Part shown: piece by piece, positions 11,192 to 16,685 of the stretch | Layout of the letters: every line of letters starts with the position of its first letter | How positions within the stretch are numbered: position 1 is the stretch's first letter | Source: a virus | Taxonomy: Duplodnaviria; Heunggongvirae; Uroviricota; Caudoviricetes | IMG/VR virus record: IMGVR_UViG_3300013383_000018 | Strand: one strand, 5' to 3' | DNA: 64,000 nt | Notes under the pieces: generated by a model | What the model was told of the DNA's origin: nothing | The model's input: only the letters and a program-made list of their open reading frames with translations | Database searches by the model: none | Program-made: the position numbers and the translations under genes

Positions 11192-11752
11192 ATGAAGGTT
11201 CTTGTTGTCGTTGATATGCAGAACGACTTTATTGATGGTGCGCTCGGCACACCAGAAGCGCAGGCTATTGTGCCGAAGGTCGTTAAGAAAATCGAAGAGT
11301 TTGATGGGGAGGTTTTGTGGACGCAAGATACCCATTCTGATGATTACCTCGAAACGCAAGAAGGAAGACTGCTGCCAGTGAAACACTGTATATGTGCAAG
11401 TAGTGGCTGGCAGATTCATAGCTCAGTCAAAGCAGCAATTCAGCGCAAGGCTCCAGCGGATGACCAATTGAATGGTTTCGAGAAGAAAACATTTGGCTCA
11501 TTAGCACTTGCTGGTCGCTTATATCCAGAAGTCGCGTTTGGCGATGGCATAGAAGAAATCGTCCTCGTTGGTCTTTGCACCGATATCTGCGTTATCTCAA
11601 ATGCCTTGCTGCTCAAGGCGTTTATGCCGGAAGTTAAGATTACGGTTGACGCTTCTTGCTGCGCTGGTGTGACACCAGAGAGTCACAAGACTGCATTGGC
11701 GGCAATGAAGATGTGCCAGATTAACATCGAGAACGAGGAGGTCACGGCATGA
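11192..11752 (+). CDS. pncA: nicotinamidase / isochorismatase-family cysteine hydrolase (PncA-like)
   Basis: VVVDMQNDF N-terminal motif. Catalytic Cys in LVGLCTDICV. Confidence 0.75.
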   Translation: MKVLVVVDMQNDFIDGALGTPEAQAIVPKVVKKIEEFDGEVLWTQDTHSDDYLETQEGRLLPVKHCICASSGWQIHSSVKAAIQRKAPADDQLNGFEKKTFGSLALAGRLYPEVAFGDGIEEIVLVGLCTDICVISNALLLKAFMPEVKITVDASCCAGVTPESHKTALAAMKMCQINIENEEVTA

Positions 11753-12561
11753 TTCTTGTTAACGATAAGCAGGTCGAGTTTACAAAGTTCCCTGATGGAA
11801 CAACCTCTTTCAGATTTTCTCCGCATCTTCCCCCACAGATGTTTGCTCAACCAATGGAACCGCCCATTTTCAGTATCACATGGAAATACGACAGCGATGA
11901 AGAGTGTATTCTCTTGTGGTACTTGACAAACCATATTCGAGAGAACAACCAAAGACCTATCATCCGTTTGAATCTGCCGTATGTTCCAAACGCCAGAATG
12001 GATAGAGTAAAAAACGTAGATGAAGTCTTTACGTTGAAATGGTTTGCGAAATTCATCAACGCATTAGGCTTTGACCGAGTGTTTGTCAGCGACCCGCACT
12101 CGAATGTTTCAACAGCACTGTTTGATAGGGTCTGTGTGATAGATGCGCAGTCAAATATCCGAAGAGTCTTGGACAAGTTGAATGACAAAAATGTATTGCT
12201 GTGCTATCCTGATGAGGGAGCAGCAAAACGATACTCATCGCAAGCCGGTAGAGAGTATGTGTTCTGTATCAAGCACAGAGACTGGCGTACTGGAAAAATC
12301 GAGCGGCTGGAATTGACAACGCCAGAAAAAGTCGCCGATAGGAACGTGCTAATTGTCGATGATATTTGCTCTCGCGGTGGCACATTCACTTTTACAGCTA
12401 AGGCACTAAAAGAGGCTGGCGCGAATGAAGTGTTTTTGTATGTGACTCATTGTGAAAGCACAATTCATAGCGGGACGGTTCTCACGGATGGCTTAATCAG
12501 TCATGTGTTTACCACAGATAGTATCTATCGCGGAAATAGCGAGATGATTTCGCTCATTTAA
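11749..12561 (+). CDS. ribose-phosphate pyrophosphokinase-like enzyme (PRPP synthetase family; candidate Prs or ADP-ribose pyrophosphokinase Adps)
   Basis: IIRLNLPYVPNARMDR matches the Prs motif ITAVIPYFGYARQDR. DRVFVSDPHS matches DRVLTVDLHA. PRTase motif VLIVDDICSRGGTF. Confidence 0.75.
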   Translation: MILVNDKQVEFTKFPDGTTSFRFSPHLPPQMFAQPMEPPIFSITWKYDSDEECILLWYLTNHIRENNQRPIIRLNLPYVPNARMDRVKNVDEVFTLKWFAKFINALGFDRVFVSDPHSNVSTALFDRVCVIDAQSNIRRVLDKLNDKNVLLCYPDEGAAKRYSSQAGREYVFCIKHRDWRTGKIERLELTTPEKVADRNVLIVDDICSRGGTFTFTAKALKEAGANEVFLYVTHCESTIHSGTVLTDGLISHVFTTDSIYRGNSEMISLI

Positions 12562-12580
12562 TCTTAAAGGAGGCGGGCAA

Positions 12581-13786
12581 ATGCTTGAGTTACAGGGTAA
12601 GTTTGGCACTGCAAAGGTGTTTACCGACGTGGTCGATAATGAGTCTATCTCTCAGGTTATCAATCTTTTGAATCAACCGTACATCGAGGGAAGCAAAGTC
12701 CGTATGATGCCAGACATTCACGCTGGAGCTGGTTGTACAATCGGAACCACGATGACCATCAAGGATAAGATTTGCCCGAACCTTGTCGGCGTTGACATTG
12801 GATGCGGCATGGAAACTATCCGTATCAAAGAAACGCATATCGAACCGCAGAAGCTGGACAAAGTTATTCGCGCAGGGGTTCCGTCCGGTTTTGAGATTCG
12901 CACAGAAGCTCATAGATACGCAGAAAGCATCGACCTGTCGGAGCTGTGCTGTGCAAAGATGGTCAATGTAGACCGCGCATATAAAAGCATCGGTACGCTT
13001 GGTGGCGGAAATCATTTCATCGAAGCCAACAAAGATGATGATGGGCACATCTATATTGTGGTTCATTCCGGCAGCAGACACATTGGTCTGGAGATTGCCA
13101 ACTTCTATCAGGAAGCTGCGTTCAAGGCGTTAACCTCGTATTCCAAGGAAGAAATCGAGGAGGTCGTCAACGAGTTAAAAGCGGCTGGAAGACAAAAAGA
13201 AATCCAAGCTGTTCTTAAAGGCATGAAGGTAAAGAAGCCGGGAGTTCCAAAGCAGCTTGCATACGTTGAGGGAGAATTGTTTGAGCAGTATATCCATGAC
13301 ATGAAAATTGCTCAACGTTTTGCTGAACTTAACCGCCAAGCAATGATGGACACCATTGTTAAGGGTATGGGATTCCATGTCGAAGAGCAGTTTACGACTA
13401 TTCACAACTACATCGATGTAGAGAATATGATTCTTCGCAAGGGTTCGGTCTCTGCACGAGCTGGTGAGCGGCTACTGATTCCTATCAACATGAGAGACGG
13501 TAGTTTGCTGTGTACCGGCAAAGGAAATGAAGACTGGAACTTCTCTGCCCCGCATGGAGCTGGGCGTTTGATGAGCCGCAGCGCGGCGAAAGAGACATTC
13601 ACAGTTTCTGAGTTCAAGAAGCAGATGGAAGGTATCTACACCACATCTGTTGGAAGAAGCACGCTCGATGAATGCCCGATGGCATACAAAGGTATGGATG
13701 ATATCGTAAACAATGTCGAACCAACAGTGACCATTGATGCCATCATCAAGCCGATTTATAACTTTAAGGCGGGTGAAGAGGAATGA
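12581..13786 (+). CDS. rtcB: RtcB-family RNA 3'-phosphate ligase
   Basis: MPDIHAGAGCTIG and GGGNHFIE motifs. Confidence 0.9.
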   Translation: MLELQGKFGTAKVFTDVVDNESISQVINLLNQPYIEGSKVRMMPDIHAGAGCTIGTTMTIKDKICPNLVGVDIGCGMETIRIKETHIEPQKLDKVIRAGVPSGFEIRTEAHRYAESIDLSELCCAKMVNVDRAYKSIGTLGGGNHFIEANKDDDGHIYIVVHSGSRHIGLEIANFYQEAAFKALTSYSKEEIEEVVNELKAAGRQKEIQAVLKGMKVKKPGVPKQLAYVEGELFEQYIHDMKIAQRFAELNRQAMMDTIVKGMGFHVEEQFTTIHNYIDVENMILRKGSVSARAGERLLIPINMRDGSLLCTGKGNEDWNFSAPHGAGRLMSRSAAKETFTVSEFKKQMEGIYTTSVGRSTLDECPMAYKGMDDIVNNVEPTVTIDAIIKPIYNFKAGEEE

Positions 13787-15485: not shown

Positions 15486-15937
15486 TGCCGGTACAAATTA
15501 TTGATGGAGATTTGTTCCAAACCCACGCCAAATACATTTGCCATCAGGTTAACTGTCAGGCGAGAATGGGCAGCGGTGTGGCTAAACAGGTTCGAGCCAA
15601 GTATCCAGAAGTCTATAACGCCTATGTCGGCTTCTGCAATGAGGAACGGAATGTGTTCGGTCGGACGCAATTCGCTCAGGCTAACGATGGCAAAGTCATC
15701 GTCAATATGTTTGCGCAGAGCAACTACGGATATGATGGGAAACTGTACACAGATTACACCGCATTTCAGAGTTGCTTAAAACGGATTAAATTGACCGTAC
15801 CTGCAGGAGAAACAATCGCCATGCCGTTTAAGATTGGATGCGGTCTTGGCGGTGGAGACTGGAATGTGATTTTCGGTCTTATCCAAAAGGAACTGTCCGA
15901 TAAGTACACAGTAGAGTTGTGGAGAAAAGAGGTATAG
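15485..15937 (+). CDS. Macro domain protein (ADP-ribose binding or hydrolase)
   Basis: HQVNCQARMGSGVAKQV and IGCGLGGG match macro-domain glycine motifs. Confidence 0.7.
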   Translation: MPVQIIDGDLFQTHAKYICHQVNCQARMGSGVAKQVRAKYPEVYNAYVGFCNEERNVFGRTQFAQANDGKVIVNMFAQSNYGYDGKLYTDYTAFQSCLKRIKLTVPAGETIAMPFKIGCGLGGGDWNVIFGLIQKELSDKYTVELWRKEV

Positions 15938-15938
15938 T

Positions 15939-16685
15939 ATGCTGGCAAATCCGAAAAGAACAAAAGATGAAATCGTGCAGTGGATTCGAGAATACTTCGC
16001 TGCAAACGGCAATGATTGCTGCGCTGTCATCGGTATTTCCGGTGGCAAAGATAGCAGCGTAGTCGCAGCACTTTGCGTTGAAGCTCTTGGCGTAGAGCGG
16101 GTCATCGGCGTGCTGATGCCAAATGGTCGGCAGAAAGATATCGCAGACTCCAAGCTGCTGGTCGATACGCTTGGCATTGCAAGTGTCACAGTTGACATTG
16201 GCGGTGCATACAGCAAGATGGTTGATGTGGTCGGCAGAGTAATGCCGTCTGGAGTAAGTAATCAGGCAGCGGTCAATCTCCCTCCAAGGCTGCGTATGGC
16301 GACGCTCTATATGGTCGCTCAGTCTTTGGCTCGCGGAGGTCGCGTCGCAAACACCTGCAATCGCTCCGAGGATTATGTTGGATACTCCACAAAGTTCGGT
16401 GACAGCGCTGGTGACTTCAGCCCACTTGCAAACATCATGGTACATGAGGTTCGTCAGATTGGCTACGAACTCCCCATTCCCCGTGAGCTGGTAGACAAGA
16501 CTCCGTCGGATGGTCTTTGCGGTAAGACAGACGAGGACAATCTGGGCTTCACCTATACGCAGCTCGACAACTACATCATGCATGGTAGTAGTGGGGATGA
16601 AGACATCGACAAGGTAATTGCAAGGAAGCATATGCAGAACCTGCACAAGCTCAATCCGATGCCTGCCTACGGTTCACAGCCGTAA
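15939..16685 (+). CDS. nadE: NH3-dependent NAD+ synthetase
   Basis: PP-loop GISGGKDSS. GYSTKFGDSAGDFSPL and LGFTYTQLDNYIMHG align with E. coli NadE. Confidence 0.85.
   Translation: MLANPKRTKDEIVQWIREYFAANGNDCCAVIGISGGKDSSVVAALCVEALGVERVIGVLMPNGRQKDIADSKLLVDTLGIASVTVDIGGAYSKMVDVVGRVMPSGVSNQAAVNLPPRLRMATLYMVAQSLARGGRVANTCNRSEDYVGYSTKFGDSAGDFSPLANIMVHEVRQIGYELPIPRELVDKTPSDGLCGKTDEDNLGFTYTQLDNYIMHGSSGDEDIDKVIARKHMQNLHKLNPMPAYGSQP

Follow-up and report, generated by a model that had tools for sequence, protein, structure and literature searches.

The window analysed here is a 64,000-nt stretch of DNA from IMG/VR record IMGVR_UViG_3300013383_000018, a virus of the class Caudoviricetes. Positions 11192–16685 hold an island of seven genes, all co-directional and with little spacing between them, that includes homologues of Adps and Namat, the two enzymes of a phage nicotinamide adenine dinucleotide (NAD+) reconstitution pathway; a further gene considered with them, encoding a NADAR-domain protein, lies downstream. 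Profile searches assigned the genes as follows (aa, amino acids):

11192–11752, + strand: PncA-type nicotinamidase, 186 aa (Pfam Isochorismatase, E = 1.2e-24)
11749–12561, + strand: Adps-family Prs-like enzyme, 270 aa (TIGR01251, 112 bits; cut-off 113)
12581–13786, + strand: RtcB RNA ligase, 401 aa (Pfam RtcB, E = 3e-65)
13783–13998, + strand: predicted membrane protein, 71 aa (no family match)
13995–15485, + strand: Namat-family transferase variant (NAMPT homologue), 496 aa (NF006629, 460 bits)
15485–15937, + strand: Macro-domain protein, 150 aa (Pfam Macro, E = 8e-5; DarG-type macro model, 59 bits)
15939–16685, + strand: NH3-dependent NAD+ synthetase NadE, single domain, 248 aa (Pfam NAD_synthase, E = 1e-50; TIGR00552, 166 bits)
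24087–24500, + strand: NADAR-domain protein, 137 aa (Pfam NADAR, E = 5e-27)

The nicotinamidase, Prs-like enzyme, NAMPT homologue, Macro domain and NadE that the original prediction had recognized by their family motifs were all recovered at these coordinates by Pfam and NCBIfam models, as was the NADAR protein that it had placed at 24087. It had described the five as consecutive genes; the identities hold, but the interval contains seven, with RtcB and the 71-aa open reading frame (ORF) separating the Prs-like gene from the NAMPT-like gene. Four-nucleotide ATGA overlaps join PncA to the Prs-like gene, RtcB to the 71-aa ORF and the 71-aa ORF to the NAMPT-like gene, and the NAMPT-like and Macro genes overlap by 1 nt. 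Promoter-like sites in the window occurred at chance level (20 found versus 21.9 expected), and in a window scan terminator-like sites did not clearly mark the ends of the operon. A DNA-level search of a phage collection returned no close annotated relative; RtcB alone matched, at 65–73% identity.

The succession of an Adps-like and a Namat-like gene in one operon, with the catalytic core and the catalytic Lys kept and no adenylyltransferase, resembles NAD+ reconstitution pathway 1 (NARP1; Osterman et al. 2024, bioRxiv 10.1101/2024.02.11.579819; structures in PMC12774641 and PMC13586617). The best match of the NAMPT-like protein in the PDB was SpβL1 Namat (9W5X/9W5W, PMC12774641; 402 bits), ahead of Xcc Nampt (168 bits) and human NAMPT (147 bits). 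A hidden Markov model (HMM) trained on Namats from canonical NARP1 loci alone scored the window protein at 529 bits, compared with 284 bits for the T4-like NadV of phT4A, which places the window protein far from NadV. The core residues D11, Y13, F187, S188, R190, catalytic H243, R307, D309, G349-D350, G379-S380 and T401-R402-D403 are kept, their SpβL1 counterparts being D13, Y15, F189, S190, R192, the catalytic His, R306, D308, G360-D361, G390-S391 and T398-R399-D400. The SCL stacking site, the third position of the loop, where Namats have Arg, Lys or Tyr, is likewise occupied (R38, equivalent to SpβL1 R40; Lys in Phass-1, the closest annotated relative of the module).

Within this conserved frame the substrate pocket is changed. 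SpβL1 Asp215 (human Asp219) corresponds to Ala213 in the window protein, and two further substitutions, Gly213 to Asn211 and His187 to Gly185, set it apart from all canonical sequences. Asp215 of SpβL1 Namat hydrogen-bonds nicotinamide, and its D215A mutant yields ~8-fold less NAD+ (PMC12774641). In human NAMPT, Asp219 sets substrate specificity, D219A being inactive and D219S shifting substrate affinity (Khan 2006, as summarized in PMC7096376 and PMC4919578), and the Asp is conserved across metazoan NAMPTs including the human enzyme (PMC3665594). All 80 canonical Namats compared here have Asp or Glu at this site, as do Xcc Nampt and the single NadV included, that of phT4A. The SCH clamp of the window protein is also remodelled: an 18-aa segment (residues 383–400) stands in place of the 6-aa 'TYQYNx', such that the GSF and TRD ends of the motif GSXΦXΦXΦTRD, the selectivity clamp for adenine, are kept with a variable insertion between them (GSFSMECLETIESDGSKQYNPYTRD) and Tyr occupies positions −1 and −4 from TRD. 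Of the aromatics that the motif has at positions 3 and 7, the Phe of GSF retains the first.

The Prs-like protein sided with Adps. On TIGR01251 it scored 112 bits, near the Adps proteins of ICP1 (98), BPS13 (66) and the Felix-O1-like phage allfine (genus Felixounavirus; 119), compared with 423 bits for E. coli Prs; an HMM trained on 75 Adps partners from canonical NARP1 loci alone gave it 261 bits, ICP1 Adps 242 and E. coli Prs 117. We therefore rejected a housekeeping Prs. Among the Adps proteins compared, that of ICP1 is the validated enzyme, with ADP-ribose (ADPR) pyrophosphorylation shown and the structure solved (PMC13586617). The window protein lacks the PRPS N-terminal β1-α1 and C-terminal α11-α12 elements, its alignment stopping where ICP1 Adps stops; it has no counterpart for the final ~35 residues of E. 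coli Prs or for the N-terminal ~17 residues of that enzyme. K175 aligns with catalytic K185 of ICP1, inside a KxRDxxTGxI hairpin that is common to the window protein, ICP1, BPS13 and allfine but not E. coli Prs; R83, H117, D155, D204 and D205 align with the ICP1 acceptor residues R87, H121, D161, D212 and D213; and the DDIC loop and both ATP-lid Phe residues, F213 and F215 (ICP1 F221 and F223), are kept. The PP loop reads C-S-R-G-G-T as opposed to C-D-G-A-A-S in ICP1, with Ser for D216, as also in BPS13 Adps. By profile, then, the Prs-like and NAMPT-like proteins are NARP1-family members, grouping with Adps and Namat references rather than with Prs and NadV, which agrees with the NARP1-like pair of the original prediction.

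The two remaining enzymes of NAD+ metabolism flank this pair. Aligned to E. coli PncA, the window nicotinamidase shows the catalytic triad (D8, K98/99 and C133) and the metal-binding residues (D46, H48 and H65); it scores 31 on the NCBIfam equivalog model (cut-off 174), and by these features the protein is a divergent member of the nicotinamidase family. NadE exceeds the TIGR00552 cut-off of 63.65 bits, carries an SGGKDS P-loop at residues 34–39 and is without a glutaminase domain.

Next, we surveyed relatives of the NAMPT-like protein, collected from IMG/VR (with the window protein as query and, separately, with an alignment led by a canonical Namat), GTDB genomes and metagenomes, and used profiles of PncA, Adps-like, NadE, Macro, NADAR, RtcB, PncB and NadD to score the neighbouring DNA. 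The set comprised 204 distinct full-length NAMPT-family proteins, and loci with at least 3 kb on both sides of the gene were considered fully flanked. The residue at the Asp215 site divided them by gene content. Asp or Glu, always with Gly two residues upstream, occurred in 80 proteins, and their 54 fully flanked loci contained an Adps-like gene throughout (54) and no PncA (0) or NadE (0). Ala or Ser, with Asn, Lys or Arg two residues upstream, occurred in 124 proteins, and here PncA was present in all 89 fully flanked loci, an Adps-like gene in 88 and NadE in 88. The latter group was made up of the pairs Asn…Ala (94), Lys…Ser (29) and Arg…Ala (1), in every one of which the acid is removed and a polar or basic side chain stands two residues upstream; its His187 site is Gly, Ala or Ser. 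The split was reproduced when, as an independent control, the loci were searched with the E. coli PncA and NadE sequences (136 sources, a subset of the final loci).

The first 120 Ala/Ser proteins formed 30 clusters at 90% identity and four at 50%, and the Ala/Ser types span 33–99% sequence identity. In a neighbour-joining tree they made up one deep clade plus the separately branching Phass-1, sister to the canonical Namats. The clamp insertion recurs across this clade at ~9–25 aa and is variable, Phass-1 alone having an uninterrupted clamp (GAYTYQYVTRD). In loci L019–L053 and L155–L205 the insertion is hypervariable in length and sequence even between ~80%-identical proteins, and its flanks, GSFS(M/F)xC and P(Y/F)TRD, are conserved. 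The Adps-like gene lies 1.4 kb upstream of the Namat-like gene in the window and directly adjoins it in most relatives; in Phass-1 the order is PncA, Adps, Namat (Arg…Ala), HAD-like and NadE, with NADAR downstream. By classification Phass-1 belongs to the 'code 15 clade', and it encodes a suppressor tRNA. Contigs of metagenome-assembled genomes (MAGs) with the module were binned to Oscillospiraceae and Lachnospiraceae, which weakly suggests Clostridia as hosts. The island had been taken for an unusually complete arsenal; with 124 distinct Namat variants it is no one-off but a widespread gut-phage module, and we rejected the idea that it is unique to the window phage in favour of a conserved four- to five-gene unit.

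A reverse search anchored on NadE yielded 79 new viral loci, 63 of which contained PncA, an Adps-like gene, an Ala/Ser Namat and NadE. A further ten, on gut-virome contigs (L191, L173, L176, L185, L202, L209, L210, L212, L214 and L217) carried PncB (NAPRTase) and a cytidylyltransferase-like NadD beside NadE, nine of them also with PncA upstream; L185 is too short to show it. One of these, L191:4242-8765, which was scanned with Pfam, encodes a microbial-type PARG, PncA, DUF5662, PncB (NAPRTase with its N-domain), a NadD-like cytidylyltransferase and NadE, and looks from its gene content like a complete phage-encoded Preiss–Handler operon. PARG was matched three times overall (L032, L050 and L191), and among the PncB/NadD loci in L191 only. 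DUF5662 recurs beside two kinds of NAD+ module, the Glu-type canonical NARP1 loci and the Preiss–Handler-type loci (L112–L127 and L173–L217), which hints at an uncharacterized function related to NAD+ or ADPR.

The space between PncA and NadE is thus filled either by PncB and NadD or by Adps and the Namat variant, and the two pairs are mutually exclusive: the PncB and NadD profiles matched nothing in the Ala/Ser loci (8–10 kb around the Namat gene) and nothing in the window. Adenylyltransferases were sought in the 64-kb window with Pfam CTP_transf_like, which had no match at E ≤ 0.01 among the 49 other ORFs with 140 aa or more and detected both of two phage NadD sequences added as positive controls, so that the absence of a nicotinamide mononucleotide (NMN) or nicotinic acid mononucleotide (NaMN) adenylyltransferase noted in the original prediction stands. 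Because PncB and NadD turn nicotinate into nicotinic acid adenine dinucleotide (NaAD), Adps and the Namat variant in the same slot should do so too, and the lack of an adenylyltransferase in the window would follow from their making NaAD directly.

On balance we lean towards reading the island as a conserved gut-phage operon that would rebuild NAD+ from the products of defence NADases, ADPR and nicotinamide, by a deamidated variant of NARP1. PncA is predicted to hydrolyse nicotinamide to nicotinate and NH3 (Nam + H2O → nicotinate + NH3). The Adps-like enzyme would convert ADPR and ATP to ADPR pyrophosphate (ADPR-PP) and AMP. The Namat variant, which has lost the acid that reads the carboxamide and gained an Asn, Lys or Arg alongside, is predicted to join nicotinate, instead of nicotinamide, to ADPR-PP, giving NaAD and pyrophosphate (PPi). 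NadE would then complete the route (NaAD + NH3 + ATP → NAD+ + AMP + PPi), and NH3 released by PncA may supply this glutaminase-less enzyme. No NMN or NaMN adenylyltransferase would be required, because ADPR-PP already holds the AMP moiety. The loss of the Asp tracks PncA and NadE almost perfectly, which makes the pathway look rerouted via nicotinate and NaAD. The proposal made earlier for this DNA, a module for NAD+ reconstitution in which PncA and NadE are combined with a NARP1-like pair, survives in that form; what does not is the view of PncA and NadE as additions to a canonical NARP1, given the Asp-to-Ala213 change and its covariation with gene content. The more general claim is that Ala/Ser Namats are a new enzyme, nicotinate ADP-ribosyltransferases making NaAD from nicotinate and ADPR-PP, and that with PncA, Adps and NadE they constitute a fourth phage pathway for reconstituting NAD+, a deamidated one that is widespread among the Clostridia phages of the human gut and arose by a swap of Adps and Namat for PncB and NadD in a Preiss–Handler operon or the reverse; to this we assign an even chance.

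The Macro protein may feed the same pathway. It is 29% identical (E = 6e-17) to BBMuffin gp178, whose gene sits between Adps and Namat and whose product shares 94% identity with Adpp, the Macro protein of Vibrio phage Gary. Gary Adpp dephosphorylates ADPR-1''-phosphate and enables NARP1 to overcome aRES defence (bioRxiv 10.64898/2026.01.28.702374). Many tblastn matches of the window Macro are annotated as Poa1p-like or as phosphatase, and its best NCBIfam match is the DarG macro domain, at 59 bits against a cut-off of 250. Judged by this homology, the protein is best read as a candidate Adpp that would return ADPR-1''-phosphate, as produced by aRES-type defences, to ADPR; it had previously been listed as an ADP-ribose eraser, a role that fits less well with its relationship to a 94%-identical orthologue of the validated Gary enzyme. 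A Poa1p-like Macro encoded in the operon is shared with NARP1-AP (Adps-Adpp-Namat; bioRxiv 10.64898/2026.01.28.702374), from which the window module differs in having Macro after Namat rather than between Adps and Namat, in the extra PncA and NadE, and in the altered Namat. Macro was present in 51 of the 89 fully flanked Ala/Ser loci. In Phass-1 the slot between Namat and NadE (L001:14555-14974), Macro's place elsewhere, is taken by a 139-aa protein with no Pfam match at E ≤ 0.001 and a weak match to a HAD-type phosphatase (BT0820, 26 bits versus a cut-off of 165), which may be a non-homologous replacement of Adpp.

NADAR occurred in the flanks of 33 of the 89 loci; it lies 7.4 kb downstream in the window, but the Lys…Ser lineage has it between Macro and NadE, and in L036 and L041 it immediately follows NadE. 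The window NADAR weakly matches an anti-phage NADAR model. It is a recurrent but optional associate of the module that possibly releases ADPR from ADP-ribosyl adducts, and an anti-ADP-ribosylation role is possible. RtcB was found in 26 of the 89 loci at variable positions, and for this reason we rejected it as a member of the NAD pathway. The 71-aa ORF gave tblastn matches only in relatives whose Namat is ~97% identical or more, where it accompanies RtcB. We judge both to be passengers, RtcB a lineage-specific one, that belong to the RNA-repair gene set of the genome. The window encodes nine tRNAs and a large set of RNA-repair and tRNA-maintenance genes, comprising RtcB, a DRB0094-type RNA ligase (20202–21287) and Pfam matches to Thg1, PolyA_pol/CCA-adding head and RlaP; the set is given as 964–9168, 12581–13786 and 20202–21287 together with ORFs in other parts of the window.

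Several points weigh against the proposed deamidated route. Owing to the interruption of the SCH clamp, a preference for ADPR-PP cannot be read from the sequence, and Namat also accepts phosphoribosyl pyrophosphate (PRPP) in vitro (PMC12774641). The covariation of residue and gene content reflects one or two ancient events and not 124 independent ones, because, Phass-1 apart, the Ala/Ser proteins all fall into a single deep clade. The detour uses one ATP more than NARP1 for equal net inputs and output; speculative reasons why phages of gut Firmicutes might pay for it include rapid deamidation of nicotinamide by the host, diffusive loss of nicotinamide as against retention of charged nicotinate, and an ATP-driven pull on a reversible Namat step. 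Locus L223:9298-11479, on an Oscillospiraceae MAG contig with a chromosomal context (a GH5 cellulase and an ABC transporter permease lie near), has an Asn…Ala-type homologue with PncA only and neither Adps nor NadE within 10 kb, so that an Ala-type enzyme can operate in another context, presumably with PRPP. The enzyme roles in the Ala/Ser clade are, moreover, predicted throughout, as are all substrate specificities and the counter-defence role in the window phage. An alternative is a boost of the Preiss–Handler pathway through NaMN, in which the Namat-like enzyme joins nicotinate to PRPP supplied by the Prs-like enzyme or by host Prs, and host NadD and the phage NadE finish the synthesis. NadD is essential and hence always on hand in the host; the PRPP-dependent activity of Namat, the remodelled clamp and L223, with PncA and an Ala-type enzyme but no Adps or NadE nearby, speak for this explanation. 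We nevertheless regard it as unlikely. The Prs-like gene, which scores as Adps and not as Prs and would not be needed for PRPP alone, is kept in 88 of 89 loci, and phages that take the NaMN route bring their own NadD beside PncB (10 of 10 loci), whereas NadD is found in no Ala/Ser locus. The Adps-less L223 enzyme has, in addition, lost the adenine-stacking Phe of the clamp (ASGSHSMQ…FTRD, that is, GSF to GSH; a related fragment has GSL) and probably makes NaMN from PRPP, in which case it may be a NAMPT-derived nicotinate phosphoribosyltransferase; its loss there gives weak support to the idea that the Phe is kept in enzymes accompanied by Adps.

Two other explanations dispense with a change of route. 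According to one, which was the view of the original prediction, the island is a canonical, nicotinamide-using NARP1-AP to which PncA and NadE were independently added as a boost of host nicotinate salvage, the Asp-to-Ala change being tolerated or irrelevant. The catalytic core is indeed conserved except at Asp215, Gly213 and His187, and the covariation could reflect phylogenetic inertia within one clade. Against this stand the invariance of Asp/Glu in the canonical Namats, phT4A NadV and Xcc Nampt, the crippling of Namat by D215A and inactivation of human NAMPT by D219A, the maintenance of three non-acidic solutions over 33–99% identity, and the presence of a nicotinamidase that would consume the substrate of a nicotinamide-dependent Namat; we consider this explanation rather improbable. 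Still less probable, in our estimate, is an island devoted mainly to anti-ADP-ribosylation, in which Macro and NADAR strip DarT-like ADP-ribose from phage DNA or proteins and the NAD genes are mere neighbours. Members of the NADAR family reverse DarT-type modification, and the matches of Macro to the DarG macro domain and of NADAR to the anti-phage model, both weak, point the same way. However, Macro is homologous to Poa1p-like phosphatases and to the protein of an Adps-Macro-Namat operon whose 94%-identical orthologue is a proven phosphatase, and it is Macro (51/89) and NADAR (33/89) that are optional, while PncA, Adps, Namat and NadE are near-invariant.

Other features of the window and of related loci were recorded alongside. 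Immediately upstream of PncA, a 173-aa ORF (10655–11176) without a family match has a homologue of 39% identity on the gut contig MT835544 (L003:27533-27997), a few kilobases from the NAD module of that contig. Further upstream lie a reverse transcriptase (RVT_1, E = 1e-19), a ThiF-family protein, a calcineurin-like phosphoesterase and a DUF3990 protein, the coordinates for this region being given as 5378–6514, 3486–4163, 7116–7814 and 9190–9672; a MazF/PemK toxin domain was also matched within the window, and an ATP-dependent DNA ligase is encoded at 16695–17969. At ~60 kb the GC skew goes negative and gene orientation reverses, and window ORFs match a serine recombinase (Resolvase/Recombinase) and a Tn916-type tyrosine integrase (Phage_integrase and Integrase_DNA), an indication that an integration module, or a mobile element that has inserted, lies close to the window end. 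Among the comparison loci, the Namat gene of Vibrio phage ICP1 isolate 2003_Dha_A (L004:3001-4467) has an in-frame stop at codon 29 and is annotated as a shorter coding sequence with a downstream start, so that NARP1 may be inactivated in this isolate.

Compared with known systems, the window module differs from NARP1 in the replacement of Asp215 by Ala/Ser, of Gly213 by Asn/Lys/Arg and of His187 by Gly/Ala/Ser, in the SCH clamp insertion, and in its obligatory association with PncA and NadE, neither of which occurs in canonical NARP1 loci (0/54). With the Preiss–Handler pathway (PncA-PncB-NadD-NadE) it shares the first and last enzymes and, as far as can be predicted, the input and the NaAD product, and phage NadE proteins from the two kinds of operon are ~56% identical; PncB and NadD, acting via NaMN with PRPP and ATP, are replaced by Adps and the Namat variant, which would act via ADPR-PP, and the module would recycle ADPR whereas Preiss–Handler builds the dinucleotide de novo. 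NARP2 (NadV and NMNAT) and NARP3 (PnuC and NadR; PMC13464706) likewise restore NAD+ in phages against NAD+-depleting defences, but both require an adenylyltransferase, of which the 64-kb window has none. The human D219S and D219A mutants (Khan et al. 2006, as summarized in PMC4919578 and PMC7096376) concern the same site and the same residues, and in the human enzyme the site sets the preference for nicotinamide over nicotinate; those changes were engineered in a PRPP-using enzyme, whereas the change in the window is natural, ancient and accompanied by second-shell changes. Within the library that could be searched, the papers retrieved deal with NARP1, NARP1-AP, NARP2 and NARP3; we found none that describes the present variant or connects NARP1, Namat or Adps to NadE, PncA or NaAD, and no description of a phage-encoded Preiss–Handler operon as a phage NAD+ pathway in the literature searched; the survey of viral NAD+ systems by Iyer et al. 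2022 mentions neither NadE nor PncA.

The covariation suggests a rule for annotation, by which F-x-G-T-(D/E) would denote the nicotinamide type and F-x-(N/K/R)-T-(A/S)-T with PncA and NadE the nicotinate type, and which would correct the labels 'NadV/NAMPT' and 'ribose-phosphate pyrophosphokinase' on gut-phage genes such as those of Phass-1. If the reading proposed here is true, phage counter-defence would gain a new reaction (nicotinate + ADPR-PP → NaAD) and another way of reconstituting NAD+: NARP1 would have been re-plumbed through the deamidated branch, with PncB and NadD on the one hand and Adps and Namat on the other forming modules that are swapped between the same flanking enzymes.

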